DNA of 64,000 nt from a virus, in the IMG/VR virus record IMGVR_UViG_3300012346_000689, positions 15,318 to 79,317 of that record; one strand, 5' to 3'. The first letter of the stretch is position 1. Each line of letters begins with the position of its first letter. Shown here in pieces: positions 2,848 through 60,487 of the stretch. Both the position numbers and the translations under genes were made by a program. The notes under the pieces were generated by a model. It was not told the DNA's origin and ran no database searches. It worked only from the letters and a program-made list of their open reading frames with translations.

Positions 2848-3948
2848 ATGAATAAATTAAGCTTGTCACAATTACTAGAGATTCAGGTACAGAAATACGG
2901 GTCAATGTCTGAGTTAGCCCGTCAGATCGGGATCAAGGTGGGCACGTTCCACAAGTACATAAGGGGTGAGTCGTTCCCTTCTAATGAGAACCTAGAGAAA
3001 ATCTCTGTGTTTTTAGATATTCCCACTAAATTAGATATAGGTTCTCCCGAAGCTTTGAGGATAGCCTTCTCTAAAGCACAGAGATTAGAGTCTGATTTGA
3101 ACCTAGAGAGGTTTGACTGGTCTGATTGGGGCGGCACAGCCTCAGCAACCCGCAGCAAATCAATAGGGGACGCGATTGCCTTATTTGAGAACGATTATTG
3201 GAATCGGAAGCAAAAGACTAAGAACCGTCAAGAGACTTACAAAATAGACTATACGCGCCCATTCTCCTTCTTGCCTGAAGAGTCTGAGTTGACCGGCTCG
3301 ATGTTGCTGAAGTGCTTATGTGAGTTTGACCCCGCTAGTCGTGACAGGTTGAGGGCATATACTGCCTATGGTTCTTTGGCTAGGTTTGCCGGGATAGAAC
3401 TACCACTTCATTGGAAGGACTATCGTGGTGAGTATAAGCCAAGTAAGAATCGTTACATCCCTAAAGATGCTGAGGTCATTCAAGTTAGAGAGAGTATTAA
3501 AAACCCTGAGTGGCAGTGGGTTTACAGTGTTCTTGCAGCTTACGGAATCAGACCGCACGAACTATTCTTTTTAGAATGGGATCTGTTCCCTAAACTGTAT
3601 ATATTTAAAGGAAAGACTCATGAAAGAATAGCCCGTCCGCTCTTAAAAGATTGGGCCATGGATTGGGCTTTAGACGACATAAAAATGCCCCCGTTTGAAG
3701 GCGTTGAGGAGGCAACACACAAACAACTAGGGGCTAAAGTCACTAAGGGATTTATTCGTCAGATAAAACAATGCTGGACTAATCCTATTGTGCCCTATTC
3801 CCTCCGCGATCGCTATGCCATACGGTGCGCCGAGCAGGGCATACGGGAATCGATGGCGGCTAAATTAATGGGACACTCAGTCAAGATCCATTGTGAGCAT
3901 TATCAGAAATGGATTGATGATATTGACATGGACAAGATTCTCGATTAG
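2848..3948 (+). CDS. int: tyrosine recombinase (phage integrase) with N-terminal XRE-type HTH
   Basis: YGIRPHELF (Arg), YSLRDRYAIR, MGHSVKIHCEHY (His/Tyr) motifs; FDWSDW motif of cyanobacterial integrases; N-terminal SELARQIGIKVGTFHKYIRGESFPS. Confidence 0.9.
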   Translation: MNKLSLSQLLEIQVQKYGSMSELARQIGIKVGTFHKYIRGESFPSNENLEKISVFLDIPTKLDIGSPEALRIAFSKAQRLESDLNLERFDWSDWGGTASATRSKSIGDAIALFENDYWNRKQKTKNRQETYKIDYTRPFSFLPEESELTGSMLLKCLCEFDPASRDRLRAYTAYGSLARFAGIELPLHWKDYRGEYKPSKNRYIPKDAEVIQVRESIKNPEWQWVYSVLAAYGIRPHELFFLEWDLFPKLYIFKGKTHERIARPLLKDWAMDWALDDIKMPPFEGVEEATHKQLGAKVTKGFIRQIKQCWTNPIVPYSLRDRYAIRCAEQGIRESMAAKLMGHSVKIHCEHYQKWIDDIDMDKILD

Positions 3949-11009: not shown

Positions 11010-12224
11010 ATGTTTGAAAATTATGATGTAAATGACCGTCATCAAATAAGATTTGATGTAGTAATTGAAACCCTGTCACCATTAAGCCATATTGGGGAAA
11101 GTATAGGTAATCAAAGCAATTTAAAAACTTTAGATATTACCGACCTGACAGGTGAATCTAATCCTGTTTTTGTGTACTCTTCTAATAGTTTAAGAAACGG
11201 TTTGTTCAGGCGAAAAGGTACGTTATCAATGTTAGATGACCTTGATTTAACTGTTAATCCTACAACTCACCAAACGTTATTTGCGGGTGGTTTTATTGAA
11301 GGTGGCACAGCAGTAGATTTAGAATTAGATGCCAAAGTTCGGAAGTTTTTGCCATCAATATCGGTGCTAGGAACAGCTAAACCACCAGGGCTATTTAATA
11401 GTAATAATAGTCAAATGATTGGTGGCAGAATTAATATAGGAGGTGCTTATTTAGTATGTTTAGAAACTGCTGAATACATCTATAAAAGTTTTCCCCCTTT
11501 ATTGCCTTATTCAGTGCTTTCGTTTGTAAAAGAATTGGTAGAAGCAAAGCAATCTTTATTTAATGATAGAGTGAATGCTTGGCTTTATCAAAAACAAATT
11601 TCTGGTATTCAAGAAAAGGTAAGAAATTATCAAGAGTTATTGTTAGAATATATGCCACTATTAGAAGATAAATTAAGGAGTTATACGCAGTGGCTAACCT
11701 ATAATCAAAAGGTCAGAATGGATAGTTTAAAAGACCCACATTTAGCACAATATATTAACAGTAATCATCAAATAGGAGGGCAACAAACAAGCTTACTGAG
11801 TGAATCAAAGCCAGATAAAAAGAAGGGTAAATCTTCTGATGAAAAGCACTCTCAACAGATGATTATGGGCGACTGGCTGTTACAGCCGGGTGCGACTTTA
11901 TATTCTCGTTGGGATGGAAATATCACTGATGTTGAAGAGGGAATGCTCGCAGCCGCACTACTAAAATTCGCTGAATCACCGTACTTAGGAGGTAAATGTG
12001 GAACAGGGTGCGGACTTGTTTCTTTTGATATTTATTATCGATCGGGTCAAGAAGCGGGCAAGTGGCTGACTATAGCTCCAGACTCTCAAATATTGTCAGA
12101 AAGATGTCAGGAAAACTATCAAAGATATATGCAACATTTAGAGCAATTTAAAGGATATATTGCTTCAGCAAAACAGGATATAACTAAGTTTCTAAGTGAA
12201 CGTTCTGGGAGTCGCACCCAGTAG
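11010..12224 (+). CDS. csf2: type IV Cas7 backbone RAMP (Csf2)
   Basis: IETLSPLSHIGES, PVFVYSSNSLRNGLFRR, LFAGG, FLPSISVLG, IGGRINIG, YLGGKCGTGCGLV Gly loop. Confidence 0.88.
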   Translation: MFENYDVNDRHQIRFDVVIETLSPLSHIGESIGNQSNLKTLDITDLTGESNPVFVYSSNSLRNGLFRRKGTLSMLDDLDLTVNPTTHQTLFAGGFIEGGTAVDLELDAKVRKFLPSISVLGTAKPPGLFNSNNSQMIGGRINIGGAYLVCLETAEYIYKSFPPLLPYSVLSFVKELVEAKQSLFNDRVNAWLYQKQISGIQEKVRNYQELLLEYMPLLEDKLRSYTQWLTYNQKVRMDSLKDPHLAQYINSNHQIGGQQTSLLSESKPDKKKGKSSDEKHSQQMIMGDWLLQPGATLYSRWDGNITDVEEGMLAAALLKFAESPYLGGKCGTGCGLVSFDIYYRSGQEAGKWLTIAPDSQILSERCQENYQRYMQHLEQFKGYIASAKQDITKFLSERSGSRTQ

Positions 12225-12306
12225 CCGAGTTCAGTTCCTTTTTTCATGATAATTCGGGACTCGGCAAGTGTACAAACTCTTCTGAATACTGTTTCAGCCA
12301 ACGTTC
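12198..12306. ncRNA. candidate tRNA-like cloverleaf RNA between csf2 and the second csf3
   Basis: 7-bp closing stem GAACGTT/AACGTTC; hairpins CTGGG/CCCAG (loop reads TGCGACT on the minus strand, T-arm geometry), GCCGAGTTC/GGACTCGGC and CTGAA/TTCAG. Confidence 0.5.
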
Positions 12307-12327
12307 TCTATCAATATATCATAAATA

Positions 12328-14325: not shown

Positions 14326-15264
14326 ATGTCAATTAGTACAATGAAACACATAGTTATGTTTTCTGGTGGAGTTGCGTCGTGGTGTGCTGCTAAATTAGTA
14401 AGCGATCGCTACGGGATAGACAATTTAATATTACTTTTTGCTGATACTTTAATAGAGGATCAGGACTGTTATCGATTTATTTTAGAGGGTGCGGCTAACA
14501 TATTCAATATGAGACTTAACCCTAGATATATAGAAAAAGGGTTTTTAAATATTCCTGAGATAGGGGATATAAACCGTAATACTGTTTTATGGAGAATAGC
14601 AAACGAGTCTAGAGTAATTAGGGCTAATTTAGATAATGGTTTAGTCTGGTTGCAAGAAGGAAATGATGTTTGGGATGTGTTTTTTGAAGACAAATTCCTA
14701 AATCATTATGTTAGTAATTGCTCCAAGAAACTTAAACAAAAACCATGTAAAGGCTGGTTAAATTGGGGATTAGAGTCACAAGAGCCAACGGTAGCAAAAT
14801 ACTTAAATAACCCTGAAAATGTGACAATTTATTTAGGTATAGATATGAACGAGATTGAAAGAGCAGAGAAGATAATAGAAGGATATAAACCGTTTAAGGT
14901 AGATTTTCCTTTGCTTTGGGATAATTGGTTAGATAGAAAAGGGCAATTTGACCTATTAGAATCAGTTAATATTCAGCCACCGAGACTTTATAAATATGGT
15001 TTTTCTCATAACAATTGTGGAGGTTTTTGTGTTAAGGCGGGTAAGAAACAATTTGCACAATTACTAGATACTTTTCCTGATAGATATAATTACCACGCTC
15101 AACAAGAAAAAGCTTTCCAAAAGCATATAAAACAAGAGATTACTATATTAAGAGAGCAACATAATAACGAGAAAACAAGGCTTAGTTTGGCAGAGTTTAA
15201 AGAGCGTCCTAAGCAGTTGTCATTGTTTGATGCGATGGGTGGCTGCGGGTGTTTTATTGACTAA
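14326..15264 (+). CDS. phage PAPS-reductase-like PP-loop protein with Cys clusters
   Basis: HIVMFSGGVASW, LFADTLIEDQD, CSKKLK, YLGID, GFSHNNCGGFCVKAG, C-terminal GGCGCF. Confidence 0.75.
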   Translation: MSISTMKHIVMFSGGVASWCAAKLVSDRYGIDNLILLFADTLIEDQDCYRFILEGAANIFNMRLNPRYIEKGFLNIPEIGDINRNTVLWRIANESRVIRANLDNGLVWLQEGNDVWDVFFEDKFLNHYVSNCSKKLKQKPCKGWLNWGLESQEPTVAKYLNNPENVTIYLGIDMNEIERAEKIIEGYKPFKVDFPLLWDNWLDRKGQFDLLESVNIQPPRLYKYGFSHNNCGGFCVKAGKKQFAQLLDTFPDRYNYHAQQEKAFQKHIKQEITILREQHNNEKTRLSLAEFKERPKQLSLFDAMGGCGCFID

Positions 15265-15336
15265 TCCAAGATGCAGGAGTTGAACCTGCCTAGTACAAAT
15301 TATGAGTTTGTTGCCTAACCGATCGGCCAATCTTGG
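15265..15336 (-). tRNA. tRNA with CAT anticodon, Ile2 (lysidine) type
   Basis: CCAAGAT/ATCTTGG acceptor, D-arm GGCCGATCGGTTAGGC, ACAAA-CTCATAA-TTTGT, GCAGG-TTCAACT-CCTGC, discriminator A; resembles cyanobacterial tRNA-Ile2, but Met cannot be excluded. Confidence 0.85.
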
Positions 15337-53300: not shown

Positions 53301-54811
53301 TGATCGGCAACGACCCGGTTAAGGCAAGAGAATTGACAAGGACTCTGAGAGAACAGGAAGAGTCTCTGATTGCGATCTTATCCACTCAACGGAAATTTAC
53401 TATTGAGAGAGAGAAAACTGCTCGCCTTGACCAAGTTAACCGTCTCAAACTGTCGGGCATGGATGAACTAGCTAACCTTGAGAGGATAAAAGCAGAGACG
53501 GATTACACCAAACTGCTTATCGGACAAAAACAAGCAGAATTGAGGGAATATGATAAATTGAACCTGTCTAAGGCATTCTCTGACCGTCAATATGCAGAAA
53601 AGAGACGGGGTTTAATTCAAGAGATAGATAGCCTAACAAGTCAATCTATTAGCTATCAAATTGAGATGATTGAGGCTCAAACTACCGCCTTAAACAAGGG
53701 TTTAGACATTGAGGTGGAGTACCGCGAGAAACTGCGGGGGATGCTCGACTCTGAACGAGAACAAAGGAAACAACTATTGTCCGCTACTAAGGAACAAGCA
53801 CGGGCTAACTCTACCCTCAAAACCCAACGATTAGAAGGTAAAATCGGTCTTTTAGGGGATATTATCTCTTCTAATGACGATGAGAAACAGAAGAAAAGGA
53901 TAGAGGATTATAACAAGAAAGAATCCCAAAATAAGGTCAAACGCTTTGCTTCTTTATTAGGTGTCTCCACTACTGACCCGGTAGCCCTGCTCATCAAACA
54001 AAGTGATCTAGAACAAAAGCTCGCTAATGAAAAACTCAAGGCCTTAAAAGAGGAGCAACGCTTGGCTAAAGAGCTACTCTTATTAGAACAAGAGCAAACT
54101 CTTGAGAGTAAGAGGCAAGCCATTGAACAAGCGAAGATTAACGAGCTTAAGGCTGAACAATCTTTACTACAATCAGAGTTAGCCCTTTTACAAGCTAAAA
54201 CTCCTCAAGATGTACTTATCGCTCAAAAAGGTATGGCGATCGCGGAAAGGGGTTTAGAACTTGCTAGGCAACAGGTCATCTCGACTGATAACGCTTTACG
54301 CTCTCAGATAGAAATATTCAATAAACAGAGGATAACTGCTGAAAAAGAGCAGACCTCTACCTTACGCTCTCAATCTCTCGATTCTGTTCGCTCTAACTAT
54401 AAATCTCTCCCGAATGTCAACCCCTTTACTGTCAAATCGGAGAGAATCCCCTTAATCGGGGGCAATCAGGAGAAAAATCCCACAGATTTGAGGATTCCTC
54501 AGTCTCTATCTGATTTGAATAGCTTTTACGCTCCTAAGTTTAATCTAGGAGATTTTACCCCTATCGCTCAATCCATAGAAGACCTAAACCGTATTTATGA
54601 CCCTAAACGACAACCGACCCCACCACCTACCGTGCAACAACTATCTCCCTTTGAAAAGGCTATCCTTGAGAAGCTGAACAAGCCTAGCATTGAAAGGTTA
54701 GAGTTTAACAACACCTTTGAGAGCCAAGATCAGGAGGCTTTGCTGCGTAGGGTGAGGACTCAGGTTGTCACTGATATTAATCAGGTGATCAATAGCTCAA
54801 CTAGCCTATAG
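47321..54811 (+). CDS. tape measure protein (~2500 aa) with internal HExxH domain
   Basis: Two G/RI.S.S motifs, tape-measure domain (SEEAGRVFLAFNQIIQKGRLSAEEIRQQLAE), hydrophobic centre, long coiled coil. Confidence 0.9.
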   Translation: MNGVNVFVSLELDHKKLDKAIDDLQREKLFVPVTFDVDRKSFDSRVKWLKSERIAIPVTFEVDRKGLDSELKALKGERIFIPVEFDIDKSQLSDLSKGISVDVGLDFDENDISDFERGSSVVLETSLDFSPAKQQIDEFKRSLSVNSSISVNGGEQGSGMCCGAIVNAIDKLHGSIKIGLQQGSEKTVRDANPQGLLNTVTSPLRSVMRGAFEGVGQNLSRSFATQTAVALERDLNVSMTKMGSRFGEVSAKFLNNTFFRGVKRQQETAIEPQQRQLAAGTARPQIESATDWKGRVRAIGPSKMFFQMSASSAKEIALGFQSQESAVKESVLRLGNAAEDAARTSFGSIGYNIVEELKKGVSKYLGKDIQGLGSQIGLDLVTGVKRVLGIKSHSRVFKAIGKDIVAGLRDGLVDFEGTLEDQERFLNVYVKSIIETVSEIKPFHGGKPATPAQYLKKMFTEVGKTGVATPQQVESIKRLIPQVQKVGNLGAFGGGYYPSSNQIKIKAPKLQNRPKGVDPKDYEDIAIARIVIHEFTHAMQAGFKSWQLPFAGASSEPKKAKIGRWLDVKRWQRGVAGSSGKHKNEKTVVAAEKEAYAMDSYISKKLSERGFFLAEAEDVREADKTFGRQSLLHPYRRRFVSSDNRMVSGAPVARIAKMKAEENILLDRIKRMESVIAQREAKLRSLATSGGTGLERMESRILNSGKRLVDYERQLRDLQQRMDALYRKYTPTNKALPYAPERMALPYTPERAALPYGVRRKDLPYVPGRKALSGRERTITIEAVEIKRESGNILSNVVAGLRQGLGQWSNQILGLGKRIGSGLLTGIKKVLRIQSPSEEARQVMLNVIKGLINGGREVGPFLQGFVGKFQSALDKLKRLSSNPRPSQSSPTTGGAGGSSPGVGGFDHDALESIFSSLTMAASPLIITFLGLNNVLNPLIRKVADTLMFIEPVRRRFEVGAGSVEAGRARMGEIEDLSSRYRVPIETALTEYSKFQIAVSGTPLRGSKADDFFESLTIAIKGLGMSSEEAGRVFLAFNQIIQKGRLSAEEIRQQLAETGFPVIEFAKALNMSVTEFNELLDRGAFTAEEVFPKLAKQLRKDFGDAAKQATGDFLSGMIRVQNAVFSMSKAIGDMFGSVFAGISHGMASALEFVVEKMKFIVTVGSTFLIGFGVQAFIGLRSALSGMLSGSGALMEMFTSRQALLAKAITHGLQMMRPFLVVAIASLLDEVFGTKYSVFENLGAFFKNLIINLVYMVDNIMSALKSNQGLIGFANGFVLLGKAIASAFQSIPSGVVELTALMFILIQINMLLKLYIIDAVRTFTATLWKLISAMWSAVASGKGLSAIWGTLAGGMKLAMVGAHALLAVFVFLLAKSDFLNDLWQPLKDTTKDLTFAIQGMKNALDQVGASGEGAAKRIGGLKSKGVELNLKYALGFGGDSVKSDDAAIAHRNKIYDRLKEQGRHISTVKAVYDKAFVKELDDLGLSESIGAYRASFMTIAEENLYKNTKKQKEMADTLTKDLGAMGLSPNSKISFEPRTVLSAQSQDYLRVLFKNEGVKVDSDGVTAEVDSLKAVAAIDKAINEKRKERQDLGLIDTAEAKKQIGEIDIEIQKLQEERVLVVKPVVDIVNYLGDSKKAVESYIDTINQSADYSPAVKRRLIETVQPALDGIAQASKILEERGYIDAVDNISSVWKDVTNSLTDATKAYEKWQRLNEISTTGIKAELVGKNLPEPEKSRQLGELELKDLSSQLSKLEAMQTKRRESLAQLLSIEGSLQSEKKQELEELRKETAQGDIELAKKRLEVAEKSASERLAIEEYTLQKIRELNDVTNAQITIASQGMIERILKSQSLAQLSPERADFLKGQAQRDATRKQIVSEINTNKRLLAEIRATSQKRLAEASEPGKLSMPEYSAVVRYESKRIADAKAALATAKVKLLDEELAARKEVSSERLRINEYNLYRGQETIGLTSKENANLAEMQIILTAIAKTQKDLKVIGNDPVKARELTRTLREQEESLIAILSTQRKFTIEREKTARLDQVNRLKLSGMDELANLERIKAETDYTKLLIGQKQAELREYDKLNLSKAFSDRQYAEKRRGLIQEIDSLTSQSISYQIEMIEAQTTALNKGLDIEVEYREKLRGMLDSEREQRKQLLSATKEQARANSTLKTQRLEGKIGLLGDIISSNDDEKQKKRIEDYNKKESQNKVKRFASLLGVSTTDPVALLIKQSDLEQKLANEKLKALKEEQRLAKELLLLEQEQTLESKRQAIEQAKINELKAEQSLLQSELALLQAKTPQDVLIAQKGMAIAERGLELARQQVISTDNALRSQIEIFNKQRITAEKEQTSTLRSQSLDSVRSNYKSLPNVNPFTVKSERIPLIGGNQEKNPTDLRIPQSLSDLNSFYAPKFNLGDFTPIAQSIEDLNRIYDPKRQPTPPPTVQQLSPFEKAILEKLNKPSIERLEFNNTFESQDQEALLRRVRTQVVTDINQVINSSTSL

Positions 54812-54879
54812 ATTGAGTTGGTTTGTATGGGAAAAACTGCTATTCATCATAGCAGTTAAAGAGTTTTATCTTGTTATAC

Positions 54880-55185
54880 TTAGTTGTACCAACCCGCTTG
54901 AAAAACCTTGTTTTTAATAGTTTTCCCTGATTTGTCCTCAAATTGCATATCGGGTGTTAAAGTGACGGTACAATAATCTTTCATTGAAGTTTGCCTATGA
55001 TTCCACAGGCAAACTTTCGCTTCTATCGACTTATTTGTTTTTCCATCTATTTCTCGCGGAGTAATAGTTTCTCTATAATAAGCTTTGATAATTCTAAACT
55101 CAATCCCACTCTTGTTAAATATAAAAGCATTTTTAAGAGCGTTTACGTTAACTGTTTCTGAAGCAATAGGTTTCATGGTTTGCAC
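54880..55185 (-). CDS. hypothetical protein
   Basis: Downstream of palindrome copy 4; GAGG RBS. Confidence 0.5.
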   Translation of the reverse strand: MQTMKPIASETVNVNALKNAFIFNKSGIEFRIIKAYYRETITPREIDGKTNKSIEAKVCLWNHRQTSMKDYCTVTLTPDMQFEDKSGKTIKNKVFQAGWYN

Positions 55186-55243
55186 CTCTTGTTTTTTTCT
55201 ATATCTTTATACTAGCCAACTCTAATTCCCTTGTGCGCAAGAC

Positions 55244-55267
55244 TGTGACAGTTTGCAAACTGCCACA
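55244..55267 (-). promoter_or_regulatory. 24-bp palindrome, copy 4 of 7
   Basis: TGTGACAGTTTGCAAACTGCCACA. Confidence 0.65.
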
Positions 55268-55328
55268 GTACCCAACGAGATTTCAGTAGTTTTAAAGATT
55301 GAATGCGATCGCAGATTGATGATATTGA

Positions 55329-55976
55329 TTAGGTGTCAATCTGACTCATTTGATCAGAGACTAGGCGCTTCACTAAGGCTGCCTTAGTCCCCGTGTCGGG
55401 GAGTCCCTGTTCTTGACACAAGGCCTTTAGCTCTTTCAGGGTAAACCCGCTATAAAACTCTTTTGCGTAAGCAATTTTATCCTCTTCCGTTAATTCTGTA
55501 TCTGCCTCTGATATATCTTCTACCTCCTTAATCATCGTACCTATATCAACATGATTGCTTTTATGCCCGTTTCCATTCCCGTTACCGTTAACTTCATCTC
55601 GGATCATTTGAGATATTAAACTAGCGTCAACTTCTATAGTATCGCTATTCTCTACATTATCTAAATCCGATTCATCTGGCGCGGTTTCCTCTAGTTGAGG
55701 ATAAACTGTCAGTGTATCTTTCAAGACTTCTAATTGTGCCCAAAAATCTGTTAACAGGTCTTGATTATCCCCTACCGTAGCTAGGGATAAGAAATTCTGA
55801 ATCTGGTCTAGTGCTGATTGACCGGCACCGATCAAGGTGAGTTTAGCTTGTTGCTCTGTTTCTAGAACTTTGCGATCTTCCCTGAGTTGCTTCAATTGTA
55901 ATTCTAACTCTTGAATCTGAGATGACAAGTTAGCGATCGCGTTATTAAAATTGTCAATAGTAGTTTGTCCAAACAT
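55329..55976 (-). CDS. coiled-coil protein with C-terminal SAP domain
   Basis: FTLKELKALCQEQGLPDTGTKAALVKRL. Confidence 0.75.
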   Translation of the reverse strand: MFGQTTIDNFNNAIANLSSQIQELELQLKQLREDRKVLETEQQAKLTLIGAGQSALDQIQNFLSLATVGDNQDLLTDFWAQLEVLKDTLTVYPQLEETAPDESDLDNVENSDTIEVDASLISQMIRDEVNGNGNGNGHKSNHVDIGTMIKEVEDISEADTELTEEDKIAYAKEFYSGFTLKELKALCQEQGLPDTGTKAALVKRLVSDQMSQIDT

Positions 55977-56012
55977 GGTATAGATCCTCTTGTATAGTTG
56001 TGTAAATTGATT

Positions 56013-56077
56013 TTTCCCTATTTAGGGAATGCGAACGCAAAGGATTCGATCCTCACCTCTCGGATAATGCGATCGCT
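56013..56077 (-). ncRNA. T-loop minihelix leader element, copy A
   Basis: Minus strand: GCGATCGCA...GAGG-ATCGAAT-CCTT-TGCGTTCGC, then the TTCCCTAAATAGGGAA hairpin. Confidence 0.5.
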
Positions 56078-56086
56078 GTTTATTAA

Positions 56087-56395
56087 TTAATCTTCGTCAT
56101 CTTCATATATTATTTGATCATCAAAATCCTCTATTGACAACGACGAATCTATATAGATTTTGCTCAAAAACGCATTTAATCCTGAATCCCAACAAATACC
56201 ATCCCAAGGATTTTTGCATAGGCTGGTTATCAATAAGTAGTTTACTGTTTCCCATGGAGCATCGCTCGCAGGGTAATAAGTATCAACACCAACACCATTC
56301 AATTGAGCAACAGTAAACTTTTGTTTGTGCCTGTCTAACGCACGTGGAAAAACCATGTTTTTTAAAAGTAAGATTGACTCTTTATTTAGTAGCAT
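56087..56395 (-). CDS. hypothetical protein
   Basis: AAGGT RBS, 102 aa. Confidence 0.55.
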   Translation of the reverse strand: MLLNKESILLLKNMVFPRALDRHKQKFTVAQLNGVGVDTYYPASDAPWETVNYLLITSLCKNPWDGICWDSGLNAFLSKIYIDSSLSIEDFDDQIIYEDDED

Positions 56396-56416
56396 AATTA
56401 CCTTTTTGATAGTGTA

Positions 56417-56480
56417 TTTCCCTATTTAGGGAATGCGACATCAGAGAATCGAACTCTGTCTAGGCAACCATGCGATCGCT
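56417..56480 (-). ncRNA. T-loop minihelix leader element, copy B
   Basis: Minus strand: GCGATCGCAT...CAGAG-TTCGATT-CTCTG-ATGTCGC, then the TTCCCTAAATAGGGAA hairpin. Confidence 0.5.
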
Positions 56481-56502
56481 TACCGTACTGCTCAGTCGCT
56501 GT

Positions 56503-56673
56503 TTATTCGACCAAGAAAGCCATAGGTATGTAATCTATTTCTTCTTGGCAGCATTCAGCCAAAGATTCCAACCAATTTTGTTCAGGCGCTTCCTCTGCTA
56601 TATCTACCATCCCCATCGCTACACAAAAATCATTTAATCTGGAATCAATCTCGTTAATGTCGTCAGTCATCAT
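56503..56673 (-). CDS. small acidic hypothetical protein (56 aa)
   Basis: Translated by hand: MMTDDINEIDSRLNDFCVAMG...; below the ORF-track cutoff. Confidence 0.5.
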   Translation of the reverse strand: MMTDDINEIDSRLNDFCVAMGMVDIAEEAPEQNWLESLAECCQEEIDYIPMAFLVE

Positions 56674-56743
56674 TGCCCTGTCCCCTTGTTTTTAACCTTA
56701 CTCCTCTACAATAGCCAACCACTAGCCACCTTGTGCATACTAT

Positions 56744-56767
56744 TGTGACACTTTCTCAACTGTCACA
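56744..56767 (-). promoter_or_regulatory. 24-bp palindrome, copy 5 of 7
   Basis: TGTGACACTTTCTCAACTGTCACA. Confidence 0.65.
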
Positions 56768-56830
56768 ATAGGCTACGAGTTCTCGGCAGATTCGGGGCTC
56801 AAGCACTTCATGAAACGGTACAAATTGTAC

Positions 56831-59128
56831 CTATTCGATTTTTCTGGATTGGACGGTTTCTTCCTGTTCTAGTCCTATTGCGAGATTGATTGAATCGAGC
56901 GTGATAACCCCTGCGATCTTCCACTGTTCGGACATGGAGAAGACTCGATATATTTGACCGCTAACGATAACCCTTTGGCCTATAACTAGATTTATAGGGT
57001 ATTTGAGGGAAATATCCCCTGATACCTCATTCTGGCTATTGAGGATCTCATATTGAGTCTGTACACCTGTCTCCGCATCTGAGAGTTCGGTTATGTCAGG
57101 AAAGCTTACCGACCCGTTCTCTATATTATCTGAGAGCATTGAGTTGTCGGTAGAGATAAGCCACCGCTTGCTATTGACATCCTCGTCATTCTCGGTGTTA
57201 GGTGCGGTTTTGTTTAGCTTCTCGATACGGGAAGCTTGCCCCGGCACCCCGTTCTGTTCCTCTTCGGTTTGACTGTAAGCTGATTGCTTAATGACCTTTT
57301 CCTCTTGGCGCATTACGTTATTAATCACCTTGTATCGCTGCGGAAAGGTTGATGTGATCAGGGTCTGTTGTTGCTCTCTTTGTAAAGTGCTGAGGATAAT
57401 ATCCGATTTAGGGTCATCTTCGCTAGAGTCAGGGTCAGGGTAATTCAAAAACACACCCTCTTGCTTGAGGTATTCCTTGGAGTAAAAGGGTTTAACGTTA
57501 TCCTCTTCTACCCCAGTTTTAGCTAGTTTGGGGTAGTATTTGATTAAATCTTCAAGGGTGAAGTTTTCCTGATATGGGTACTCAATCCAGAAGAACTCGG
57601 AATAAGCTGCCTGACTCTTTTCAAGGTTAGCGATCGCTTCCTCGTCGGTTTCTTGGTCAATCTGGTATTGATAGATAATAGATTCTTTTTCTTGTTCCTG
57701 TTTAAGTCGTCTCAATTCTTTTACCTTGCCGGACACTTTAACTAAATAGCCGTAATTGTCGAAGTCGTAAAGGAAAGTCTTGATAGTCTCTTTGACCTTC
57801 TGCCATGTGGCATTAACGGCAGCCTCACTAGGGCTAAATATGTAATGAGGGACTCCATTGTTATCTAGGTAGTAGGTGTGAGTATCCACGGACGTATAGA
57901 CGTAACCCCACTCTTCCTCTATGATCTCTAAGTCCTCGCCATTAAGTTGAGTAGTTATGGTGTGGATGGTTTTCTCTGTTGTTATATCAAAGCACCATGA
58001 GGCAGTCTGTAGGTTGTTTATATCAAAGGCTTCGTAATATCCCTGTTTTAGGGTTCTAGGTGCTTGGAAATAGTCGCTGCGCCCTGTCTCTACCGTGCTA
58101 TATTTATCCCCTTCATTGTTCACTACATTATCTATAGATAAGACCGCATTGGTGACTTTAGATTTGAATCCGTAGGTTAAAGTTCTTGGTGGTATCCAAT
58201 CGGTTATGACGGTATAAGGTAAATTTGCCCACGTCCTCAGTCTGATCTTATTTGGGGATTCCCAGTCTATGATTTTTCCGTCAGGGTAAAATCTCTCGTT
58301 AGTTAGCAGTTCCCTGAGTTTTACCGCACTACCAGGGGAAATCGGACTAGAAACCCTTATCTTCCTTGAATTGCTCGATATTGCTACACCTACCCTCCGC
58401 GCTACCATGTTCGCTGTGTAGTAATACCCGTCACTGTCTTTAGACACTAAATCCCTAATTGATACCGGCTCATCTAAGGGGTTATCAATAGTGTCGCCTA
58501 ACGCTTCCCATATCCCCTGAAATGCTATTAGGACGGTTATCTTCCCTGTTAAATCTTCTATGGTAAAGCTGACATTGTTGACTCTAAAGCCTAAACTTTT
58601 AATATTGAATTGTCTTCCTATCTCAAAGAAATTGAGGATAGTTTGCTTCTTGCTAACGTCGTCTATTATGGTTAAATTTGCACTAGGTGAACCTTGGAAC
58701 TGTCTCTGGATAGTAAACTCACCTGTTATATTGTATTGAGAGAAAAAGTTAGGGATAAGATTATCCCCAACTTTTAAACCTATTAAGTTACTTTGTTCTG
58801 GATATGAATATAACACGGACAATCCTGAAGCATTAAAACTGGTATTGATAATGATTTGTTGCTGACTGTAATCATAGTAATATTGCCCTGTTTGTGGAGT
58901 GCTATTATTGGTCGGAGCAAATACTACCCCATTCACTTCTAAACGGTCAATTCCCTCTGGAGACTCTGTTAATGGGACTGTGACCTCACTTCCTGAATAG
59001 GTGGGTATGGTGTCCATATTTTGGACACTGTTATCAGGTTTTAATATTGTTGCTGTACTGGCGGATTGTAAGGGAGAACTGTAAACAGACCCGCTAAACC
59101 TATTCAATTCATTTGTTGCTACTAGCAT
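56831..59128 (-). CDS. probable tail/baseplate hub-type protein
   Basis: 765 aa; FNIKSLGFRV..., VARRVGVAI, C-terminal LVIGQRVIVSGQIYRVFS pattern of hub-like proteins. Confidence 0.5.
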   Translation of the reverse strand: MLVATNELNRFSGSVYSSPLQSASTATILKPDNSVQNMDTIPTYSGSEVTVPLTESPEGIDRLEVNGVVFAPTNNSTPQTGQYYYDYSQQQIIINTSFNASGLSVLYSYPEQSNLIGLKVGDNLIPNFFSQYNITGEFTIQRQFQGSPSANLTIIDDVSKKQTILNFFEIGRQFNIKSLGFRVNNVSFTIEDLTGKITVLIAFQGIWEALGDTIDNPLDEPVSIRDLVSKDSDGYYYTANMVARRVGVAISSNSRKIRVSSPISPGSAVKLRELLTNERFYPDGKIIDWESPNKIRLRTWANLPYTVITDWIPPRTLTYGFKSKVTNAVLSIDNVVNNEGDKYSTVETGRSDYFQAPRTLKQGYYEAFDINNLQTASWCFDITTEKTIHTITTQLNGEDLEIIEEEWGYVYTSVDTHTYYLDNNGVPHYIFSPSEAAVNATWQKVKETIKTFLYDFDNYGYLVKVSGKVKELRRLKQEQEKESIIYQYQIDQETDEEAIANLEKSQAAYSEFFWIEYPYQENFTLEDLIKYYPKLAKTGVEEDNVKPFYSKEYLKQEGVFLNYPDPDSSEDDPKSDIILSTLQREQQQTLITSTFPQRYKVINNVMRQEEKVIKQSAYSQTEEEQNGVPGQASRIEKLNKTAPNTENDEDVNSKRWLISTDNSMLSDNIENGSVSFPDITELSDAETGVQTQYEILNSQNEVSGDISLKYPINLVIGQRVIVSGQIYRVFSMSEQWKIAGVITLDSINLAIGLEQEETVQSRKIE

Positions 59129-59548
59129 TTTATTAGATGTGAGTATATGTAATTATTATAAGCAAAAACCACCGCTAGGTGGCTCTTAAAATGTAAACGC
59201 TTGAGGCAGTGCTACTAAGAGGGTTTTTCGTAGCATAGAACAATTATATCGCTTGAACCTATTAGTTTACGATTAAGCTTATTGCTCCCAAAATAATAGC
59301 TAAAATTATTGATTAAGAGAAAGTGATCTGATTGAGTGAAGGGAAAACCAATGTTAACCCGTAGTTAAAAAGCAACATGATCACAAATGCTCCCAACGCA
59401 AGTCCTAGACCACAAATTAATAGCAATAAAGAAATCATTGCTACTTTCTCGATAATAGATAACTGGTTAAATGATGACAGTTTTTTTCATAGTACCTCTA
59501 CATTTATTGATATTATATAATAATTATAAAATACAATCATAATCAACT

Positions 59549-60487
59549 ATGGACAATCAAATCTTTTTATCTGACTGCTTTGATATTATGCGCAATCTTC
59601 CTGATAATAGTATTGATGCGATTATAACTGATCCGCCGTACCTTTATTTAAAGCATAAATTAGACGCTGATTATGATGAGCAAATGTTTATAGATGAGGT
59701 TTTCCGTATATTAAAAAAAGATAGTATATTAGGCTTTTTTGGCAGAGGTCAAAGCTTTTATAAATTGAACCATTTAGCATCTCAAAAAGGGTTTAAATTT
59801 AAAGAAGAGATTGTATGGGACAAGGTGAGAATATCAAGTCCAGTGCTTAGAATAGGAAGATGTCATGAAACATTTGTTATATATGGTAAAGGAAATAAAA
59901 CCATTAATAAGATAAAAATAGATAGGATTGATAATGTTGCTGCTATTGATAGCCATAGATTGATAAATGATATAAAAAGAATCTTATCTACTATCAATTC
60001 AATTAAAACAACAGAGGATTTAATTGCTTTTAAAAATAATAAGTATAATATTCGAGAACCTCAACTAAAGCACTGCTTAACTGTTCATGCTGATTTGCCT
60101 AACTTTGACCGTGGATACAGTGCTTACAAAGCGTTAACAGAAGGATGTTTAATGCCTTCAGTAGTTAGATTTTCTACTGATCATTATAACTATCAACATC
60201 CTACCCAAAAACCTCTAGAATTGATGAAAAGATTGATAGAACTATTAACACCTGAAAACGGGTTAGTATTAGACCCATTTGCCGGCTCATTTACAACCGC
60301 GATCGCTTGTCTAGAAACGGGTAGAAGGTACATTTGTATTGAGAAAGAAGAGGAGTATTTCAACATAGGAAAAGAGAGGATTAAAAGATGGCACAACGAG
60401 CAAAGAGATAGGACGGGAACTTATGAATTACCACCTGATATTGAGAGAATAAAAGAGGATAAATACGGGCAATTAAGCTTGTTTTAA
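59549..60487 (+). CDS. DNA N4/N6 methyltransferase (beta class)
   Basis: IDAIITDPPY, HPTQKPLELMKRLI, VLDPFAGSFTT. Confidence 0.92.
   Translation: MDNQIFLSDCFDIMRNLPDNSIDAIITDPPYLYLKHKLDADYDEQMFIDEVFRILKKDSILGFFGRGQSFYKLNHLASQKGFKFKEEIVWDKVRISSPVLRIGRCHETFVIYGKGNKTINKIKIDRIDNVAAIDSHRLINDIKRILSTINSIKTTEDLIAFKNNKYNIREPQLKHCLTVHADLPNFDRGYSAYKALTEGCLMPSVVRFSTDHYNYQHPTQKPLELMKRLIELLTPENGLVLDPFAGSFTTAIACLETGRRYICIEKEEEYFNIGKERIKRWHNEQRDRTGTYELPPDIERIKEDKYGQLSLF

Follow-up and report, generated by a model that had tools for sequence, protein, structure and literature searches.

The window analysed here is a 64,000-nt stretch of an 84,261-bp IMG/VR virus record that has a terminal overlap of 55 bp. 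Two repeated elements, referred to below as A and B, lie on its minus strand in consecutive gaps between three co-oriented genes, within a gene string that converges on the tape-measure gene. The first of the three genes (56503..56673, minus strand) encodes a 56-aa protein with no family match and ends with a stop codon 23 nt before element B. Between B and A lies a gene for a 102-aa orphan (56087..56395, minus strand) whose sole database match is itself, and downstream of A follows a gene for a 215-aa protein (55329..55976, minus strand) that combines an N-terminal coiled-coil-like domain with a C-terminal SAP domain (Pfam SAP, E=7.6e-11). Ahead of all three, a promoter-like site at 56737..56766 on the minus strand (GTGACA, 16 or 18 nt, then AATAGT or TAGTAT) overlaps copy 5 of a palindrome and is the probable start of a three-gene transcript. 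Neither a promoter-like nor a terminator-like site is predicted on the minus strand between the three genes, and the proposal of a first-pass annotation of this DNA that the operon is driven from palindrome copy 5 agrees with this layout. Two copies of this dispersed palindrome (TGTGACA...TGTCACA), at 55229-55292 and 56729-56792, resemble each other over ~64 nt at 70% identity, including a downstream CACAAGG...GGCTAGT, and both overlap a promoter-like site ahead of a minus-strand gene, an arrangement consistent with an operator-promoter module.

With 50 occurrences in the window where 0.34 would be expected, the octamer HIP1, GCGATCGC, is in such excess that the host can be identified as a cyanobacterium. 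The exact octamer is found in both A and B. It also stands alone at the operon end, where GCGAUCGCAU (55303..55313, minus strand) comes right after the stop codon of the SAP gene with neither a T-arm nor a hairpin.

Element A occupies 56014..56077 and element B 56418..56480. The 21-mer TTCCCTATTTAGGGAATGCGA is present in exactly two copies in the window, at 56014 and 56418, where shuffled sequences lead one to expect 0, and ATGCGATCGCT is found at 56067-56077 and 56470-56480; the spacing of the elements is 404 bp. Read along the minus strand, both share one order of parts, namely AGCGAUCGCA, a 12-nt linker, a T-arm, the 3' strand of an acceptor-like stem, an unpaired A and UUCCCUAAAUAGGGAA. 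In element B, AGCGATCGCA (56480-56471), whose HIP1 forms the acceptor 5' strand, is followed by the linker UGGUUGCCUAGA, the T-arm CAGAG-UUCGAUU-CUCUG, the acceptor 3' strand AUGUCGC, the discriminator A at 56434 and the hairpin UUCCCUAAAUAGGGAA at 56433-56418. In element A, AGCGATCGCA (56077-56068) and a linker lead into the T-arm (U)GAGG-AUCGAAU-CCUU(U), the acceptor 3' strand UGCGUUCGC, the discriminator A at 56030 and the same hairpin at 56029-56014. The strand complementary to GCGAUCG(CA) abuts the T-stem with zero gap in both, such that the 3' strand of the T-arm continues directly into the strand pairing with GCGATCGC(A). The acceptor of A extends over nine positions, one U.U among them, and gives a stack of 13 bp as against 12, while that of B is weak, with five pairs (one of them G.U) followed by two mismatches and hence 5/7 positions paired. 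Unaided, RNAfold gives the acceptor/T-arm/hairpin fold for both elements. Outside the T-loop the cores of A and B agree at 6/25 positions, which is the chance level, whereas their flanks are 100% identical. The distance from the end of the hairpin, TTCCCTAAATAGGGAA, to the next ATG is 37 nt for A and 22 nt for B, and a ribosome-binding site lies in that stretch. Loops of the form [AT]TCGA[AT]T on a stem of at least 4 bp number three in the whole 84-kb phage genome, both strands included: A, B and a weak relative at the genome junction.

Much of this had been noticed in the first-pass annotation, which described two elements 404 bp apart with shared flanks and different cores, minus-strand T-arms (GAGG-ATCGAAT-CCTT in A, CAGAG-TTCGATT-CTCTG in B) stacked on a HIP1-paired stem, and a fixed hairpin before the next start. 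Exact matches and the chance-level identity of the cores bear out the first of these observations, the sequence and RNAfold the second, and the distances to the ATG the third.

Element B differs from A by a 5' extension (56484..56507, minus strand) in which AAUAAACAGCGA, comprising the stop codon of the 56-aa gene and common to A, precedes a 20-nt insert with a second AGCGA at its end. The insert (56484-56502, minus strand) is thereby bounded by repeated AGCGA and offers an alternative 5' strand, GCGAC, whose perfect pairing with GUCGC is better than that of HIP1; element B may possibly have two alternative acceptor registers. The weak relative is a candidate third copy outside the window, at the circular junction of the genome (plus strand, L172:84-131, identical with G000:84-131), where the stop codon of a 176-aa gene lies 37 nt upstream. 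Its parts are, in order, AGCGATCGCA, a linker, GGGC-ATCGAAT-GCCC and then UGCGGUC, which pairs with GAUCGCA; an adjacent hairpin is missing, and C53-G61 takes the place of G53-C61. Scored with the two covariance models described below, it reaches 13.9 bits by R1 and goes undetected by R2, and it is possibly a degenerate third element.

Direct similarity searches returned nothing related. The hairpin flank had no exact or near-exact DNA match in viral or genome collections, blastn of the A/B region found none in phages or plasmids, and single-protein searches with the 102-aa, SAP and 765-aa proteins found no related loci in viral contigs; for the 765-aa protein, those relatives with DNA to inspect lie on short contigs, and their downstream context differs. 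An exhaustive search with the SAP protein led to a family defined by its N-terminal domain, one member of which (TARA scaffold L006) is preceded by the same architecture in a different sequence: the stop codon of RecT, UAAGCGAUCGCA, a 15-nt linker, UCCGG-AUCGAAU-CCGGG, CAAUCGC, C, a hairpin UCCCUC...GAGGGA, a ribosome-binding site and ATG. A pattern derived from the three copies A, B and L006 was run over JGI metagenomes and IMG/VR and returned members with T-stems of 5-6 bp amid many chance matches with unpaired stems. Covariance model R1 recovered copies absent from its training, including a second copy in contig L168, twins 407 nt apart in L197 and L198, and the serial array and the PaV-LD pair described below, and a final pattern scan added 15 IMG/VR contigs. 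Element A scores 61.1 bits with R1 and 50.7 bits with R2, and element B 68.1 and 61.8 bits. Several sets of matches were discarded: those of the first strict patterns (L003, L007) fell by chance inside coding regions; a looser pattern on a collection of genome contigs gave 113 matches beyond the known elements, only two with a T-stem of at least 4 bp, the chance rate; scanning the phage genome for any acceptor plus T-arm lacked specificity, since shuffles alone lead one to expect 8.4 matches; and L145, L147, L163 and L142 scored 15-29 bits but have unpaired T-stems.

As identified by the covariance models and tallied with R2, the family comprises 38 copies, 24 of them distinct, in ~25 phage or metagenome contigs (IMG/VR, JGI, TARA and PaV-LD), most of its members having been found by patterns that demand HIP1 or the hairpin, which biases its composition. 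One contig, IMGVR_UViG_2830687482_000004 (32.9 kb), has at least eight elements in series between ~13150 and 21350 on the minus strand (L196, L213, L235), where they separate small genes. Several acceptor stems in this contig are not HIP1-based, one element bears an extra hairpin in its linker, and at least one upstream open frame continues into the element that follows it. The family also occurs in the cultured Planktothrix phage PaV-LD (NC_016564), with elements at 14801-14855 and 15093-15147 (L200:1501-1555 and 1793-1847) flanking ORF025R. Both copies fall in unannotated gaps of the RefSeq record NC_016564.1, which has no RNA feature there. In the second, which may be decaying, the T-loop is changed to AGUCGAA and the 3' half of the hairpin is gone. 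No proteins are detectably shared between the window phage and PaV-LD in the element region, and the window phage represents a second cyanophage lineage with the element, besides PaV-LD.

The first-pass annotation had proposed a covariance-model search among cyanobacterial prophages. The copies recovered all belong to the phage and metagenome contigs counted above, whereas scans of two samples of 151 cyanobacterial genomes produced only HIP1...HIP1 pairs and true tRNA-Met genes, from which we conclude that the element is not found in the host chromosomes searched. The host tRNA-Met(CAU) genes on cyanobacterial chromosomes (L173, L176, L194, L220) score 30-39 bits with the models, because the 3' part of the element is similar to their T-arm, their acceptor end GCGCA and the bases with which their trailer begins (TTCC, TTTCC). 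This likeness is possibly a hint to the ancestry of the element.

Across the family the architecture is compact, at 42-49 nt: a 7-bp acceptor-like stem on a 5-bp T-stem with a canonical T-loop, a linker of only 12-15 nt between the acceptor 5' strand and the T-stem, no D or anticodon arm, no encoded CCA, and a stable hairpin straight after the discriminator. The fold is kept by compensatory change in homologues. In a MAFFT alignment of 12 members made independently of the models, 88% of stem cells pair against 36-56% in slid controls, all five T-stem pairs change on both sides, and the covariation score is reached in 0/500 shuffles. Across the 24 distinct sequences, pairing is seen in 95.4% of stem cells, compared with 25-54% once partners are slid; 8/12 pairs show compensatory change and again 0/500 shuffles reach the covariation score. 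These figures overstate independence, since the alignment behind them was fitted to the model and is biased in its favour and since many of its rows are closely related. T-stems as different as CAGAG/CUCUG, CACGG/CCGUG, CUGGG/CCCAG, CCCCG/CGGGG and GGGGG/CCCCC take each other's place, while the G53-C61 pair is invariant in 24/24 distinct sequences, the loop conforms to (U/A)UCGA(N)U, and the T-loop residues U55, C56, G57 and A58 are kept. On the sense strand G.U outnumbers A.C by 11 to 3 (one-sided p=0.03, counted among close relatives that are not independent). The earlier impression, gained from A and B alone, that different stem sequences preserve one shape is thus confirmed by compensatory changes in homologues.

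The same comparison revises the role ascribed to HIP1. The first-pass annotation had HIP1 serve as a strand of the stem, and this holds for A and B. It is dispensable for the family, some members of which lack it or carry mutated forms (GCGACCGC, GTGATCGC, GUGAUCGC), with pairing kept or improved in the case of GCGACCGC and GUGAUCGC. In several members without HIP1 the acceptor strands covary, for example ACCCGC/GCGGGU, GCCUA/UAGGC and UACCGCAG/CUGC-U-GGUA, which identifies HIP1 as a frequent solution for the 5' strand and not a requirement.

The hairpin that follows the discriminator also covaries, with stems such as UUCCCU/AGGGAA, UCCCUC/GAGGGA, UCCGG/CCGGA and UCCUC/GGGGA and with loops that are often GAAA or UUCG. 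In A and B it reads at the DNA level as a perfect 16-bp palindrome, TTCCCTA-N2-TAGGGAA, in two copies upstream of two genes, and one could take it for the operator of a dimeric regulator with the rest of the element incidental. We regard this as very improbable: the palindrome is present nowhere else in the genome and has no promoter-like site predicted beside it, and homologues change both stem sequence and loop length while keeping the pairing, as fits an RNA hairpin. Intrinsic termination was rejected as well, since no terminator-like site is predicted on the minus strand in 54700-59600, where the hairpins of A and B continue into AAAUC or AUACA.

Known RNA classes do not accommodate the elements. 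Rfam (E up to 10 at A and B) and ARAGORN gave no match at A, B or any relative, an Rfam scan having been among the checks that the first-pass annotation suggested. Neither A, B nor any relative has the cloverleaf with D-arm and anticodon arm of a tRNA gene (RF00005), the tRNA-like module of tmRNA or Y RNA is likewise absent (no tmRNA by ARAGORN, none by Rfam), and no ribozyme family was found in the element loci. What the family does possess is the acceptor-like stem continuous with a T-stem and the conserved T-loop residues that characterise t-elements and minihelices, and, as judged from the ORF layout, its members lie in sense within an mRNA precursor beside coding regions. It had also been suggested that A and B share a class with a cloverleaf in the csf operon (12198-12307); neither covariance model detects that structure, R1 having been run at E up to 10, and the suggestion finds no support in these scans. 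Integron attC sites were rejected, RYYYAAC and GTTRRRY being absent at the element ends as read from the sequence, and CRISPR-like repeat-spacer units, the template/variable repeat of a DGR and an attP relic were considered and rejected as readings of A and B.

Resemblance to tRNA raises the question of decay, namely whether the elements are the remains of tRNA genes, as pseudogenes or att-site leftovers, with no present function. Phages do carry tRNA genes, including a tRNA-Met at 15265-15336 here, and both the weak junction copy missed by R2 and the second PaV-LD copy, with its damaged T-loop and lost hairpin, could be read as signs of erosion. Compensatory changes nevertheless preserve one minimal architecture across 24 distinct sequences, none of them has kept a D or anticodon arm, position and orientation are fixed, and the present pairing counts already speak against neutral substitution, all of which makes decay highly unlikely.

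The position of the elements is regular. Ahead of 36/38 copies, only a few nt away, lies the end of a same-strand ORF of at least 40 codons, its stop codon sometimes overlapping the first bases of the element, and a same-strand ORF starts ~30 nt past the model end in 32/38; the sense orientation holds for 36/38 members. The flanking genes themselves vary from phage to phage, which argues that the element is tied to no single protein. A link to the SAP-domain gene in particular, raised when A and B were first described, is not sustained, since most SAP-gene homologues are without the element, those in cyanobacterial genomes stand behind their own promoters with the element absent, and most elements flank unrelated genes.

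The SAP protein itself is one of a family whose members share a conserved N-terminal coiled-coil-like domain and are represented in cyanobacterial genome loci, some of which are possibly prophages, and in metagenome contigs (L131, L132, L137, L005, L008, L010). Among loci that extend far enough upstream, the gene for this protein often comes first, preceded either by a promoter-like region in which short motifs recur (L131, L132, L137) or by a strong consensus promoter (L005). Leaders in this family share a C/A-rich motif resembling CACUACAC ahead of the ribosome-binding site.

Comparison of related phages indicates that the elements coincide with the limits of mobile gene units. Where contig L156 has one element (3121-3175), its relatives L197 (1145-1606) and L198 (5610-6071) have an element, a gene and another element, the extra small gene being bounded exactly by conserved element parts. 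The twins E1 and E2 of L168 have identical flanks of up to 46 nt, ribosome-binding site included, around different cores. From such sequence comparisons the element ends appear to coincide with the boundaries of single-gene cassettes gained or lost between related phages, and the elements appear to behave as cassette joints; the 102-aa gene bracketed by B and A is a candidate for such a cassette. One might go further and posit that the elements are mainly DNA-level recombination joints that shuffle single-gene cassettes, similar to the promoter-stem-loop cassettes (PeSLs) of T4-type phages, with the tRNA-like fold a by-product or relic. The exactly bounded extra gene of L197 and L198, the twins with identical flanks and differing cores (A/B as well as E1/E2) and the orphan status of the gene between A and B would all be expected of such joints. 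A recombination joint requires shared sequence, however, and not kept G53, U55, C56, A58 and C61 or compensatory stem changes, nor would it account for G.U pairs favouring one strand, for the sense orientation of 36/38 copies or for hairpins bearing GAAA and UUCG tetraloops of RNA type. We consider it unlikely as the main explanation. A role as cassette joint is compatible with an RNA role and does not exclude it, but taken alone it leaves the conserved T-loop unexplained. A strictly PeSL-type cassette was rejected for A and B, whose gaps contain no promoter-like site, even though cassette gain and loss is still seen in relatives.

Evidence from fold, covariation, strand and position together supports the initial view of A and B as tRNA-mimic RNA structures in consecutive leaders on the transcribed strand. 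RNase P, RNase Z and the CCA-adding enzyme recognise in tRNA the portion made up of a 7-bp acceptor stem stacked on a 5-bp T-stem that carries a proper T-loop. The lack of an encoded CCA past the discriminator suits RNase Z. In plant mitochondria, t-elements made of an acceptor stem and T-arm direct cleavage of mRNAs by RNase P and RNase Z and so define 5' and 3' ends (PMC1920247), and cyanobacteria possess RNase P, a single RNase Z, RNase E and RNase J (PMC10989914). By analogy, we posit with moderate confidence that A and B belong to a conserved family of intercistronic tRNA-like t-elements at which host RNase P and RNase Z cut the polycistronic mRNA, leaving a 5' hairpin on the downstream part. 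Of the functions proposed in the first-pass annotation, processing or stability fits best on this comparison, whereas nothing suggests antitermination.

Under this processing model, the element would be transcribed within the polycistronic mRNA, and host RNase P would then cleave 5' of the acceptor stem, a few nt past the upstream stop codon, and host RNase Z after the discriminator. The cistrons would be separated and a mini-tRNA freed, and the downstream mRNA would begin with the hairpin, its ribosome-binding site following 20-35 nt on. As a 5'-terminal structure, the hairpin could shield that mRNA from 5'-end-dependent decay by RNase E or RNase J. Structure, conservation with covariation, sense orientation and the fixed place between stop and start codons are directly established; that the transcript runs through the element, that RNase P and RNase Z cleave it there and that the hairpin stabilises the downstream message are inferred. 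Counted against the processing model are the weak acceptor stem of B, the 13-bp stack of A and the occurrence of identical flanks with differing cores within one genome, a pattern which also fits a DNA-level recombination role.

The mini-tRNA, freed or still embedded, invites a different emphasis, in which it is itself the product and cutting is not the purpose: it might act in trans as a decoy or titrant of a host tRNA-binding factor (a tRNA-targeting defence nuclease, the CCA-adding enzyme, TruB or TrmA), or cap and protect the 3' end of the upstream mRNA. Proteins that bind tRNA recognise exactly such features as the T-loop consensus and the 12-bp acceptor/T stack, phages carry several copies (at least eight in one contig), and excised t-elements of plant mitochondria carry non-encoded 3' C residues (PMC1920247). 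A molecule without an anticodon arm cannot, on the other hand, decoy anticodon nucleases, and the strict layout of stop codon, element, hairpin, ribosome-binding site and start points to a cis role at gene junctions; we think it improbable that the mini-tRNA is the main point of the elements.

Extending the preferred processing model, cyanophages including PaV-LD might routinely punctuate their accessory operons with minimal tRNA mimics, dicing by RNase P and RNase Z into hairpin-capped single-gene mRNAs, with the modules serving as portable joints that move single genes together with their own processing signal and ribosome-binding site, and with excised, CCA-tailed mini-tRNAs perhaps acting in trans against tRNA-directed defences. 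We offer this broader scenario as a speculation in which our confidence is low. If true, it would represent a viral counterpart of mitochondrial tRNA punctuation. Should the processing model be correct, bacterial viruses would be using the host tRNA-maturation machinery on mRNAs, a strategy documented until now in organelles and for a small number of eukaryotic long non-coding RNAs, and the individual expression and tuning of long strings of tiny phage genes would be explained. The family adds a structured RNA that is absent from Rfam and has been missed by tRNA finders and genome annotation, and its presence in a cultured phage-host pair makes the idea directly testable. The compact module (~47 nt plus hairpin) could also serve as a host-enzyme-driven processing signal in synthetic operons of cyanobacteria.

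The literature searched contained no description of such elements in phages or cyanobacteria, and a large survey of candidate structured RNAs in viruses mentions tRNA-like candidates in general terms only (PMC10690425). New here are the second lineage beside PaV-LD, the members without HIP1, the serial arrays of at least eight elements, the behaviour at cassette boundaries and the copies in cultured PaV-LD. The closest parallel is with the t-elements of plant mitochondria (Forner et al. 2007, PMC1920247), where a non-canonical tRNA-like structure likewise combines an acceptor-like stem with a conserved T-arm (GGTTCRANYCC motif in plants) and is located in mRNA precursors beside coding regions. 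In plants, RNase P and RNase Z generate mRNA ends that match the ends of the t-elements (PMC1920247), whereas for the cyanophage elements cleavage is predicted. The latter further differ in belonging to dsDNA phages, in their compact 42-49 nt without D or anticodon arm, in a 5' strand that is often HIP1, in the obligatory hairpin after the discriminator and in their serial occurrence between small genes. Mitochondrial tRNA punctuation and mascRNA, from MALAT1, share with the phage elements the principle, predicted for the latter, of a tRNA-shaped cut signal for RNase P and RNase Z within a longer transcript, although these are full cloverleaves of eukaryotes and the phage elements only the minihelix half, in a bacterial virus.

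Bacterial systems offer further parallels. We know of no conserved T-arm/acceptor family at the intercistronic RNase P sites of E. coli, in contrast to the dedicated and conserved tRNA mimic of the phages, and RNase P reportedly cuts within the intercistronic regions of bacterial polycistronic mRNAs and so alters the relative stability of cistrons, as Li and Altman are said to have found in 2003. Hammerhead ribozymes are said to flank genes in prophages, reportedly described by Perreault et al. in 2011; these and the phage elements would both be RNA cutting signals between small phage genes, as predicted for the elements, with the difference that hammerheads cleave themselves while the elements would need host enzymes. 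The PeSLs of T4-type phages are repeated intergenic stem-loop modules that flank small ORFs and combine an early promoter with a plain stem-loop, and cassettes are gained and lost there. The elements described here are alike in being repeated intergenic stem-loops associated with cassette gain and loss, yet they have no promoter-like site and adopt a tRNA-like fold.
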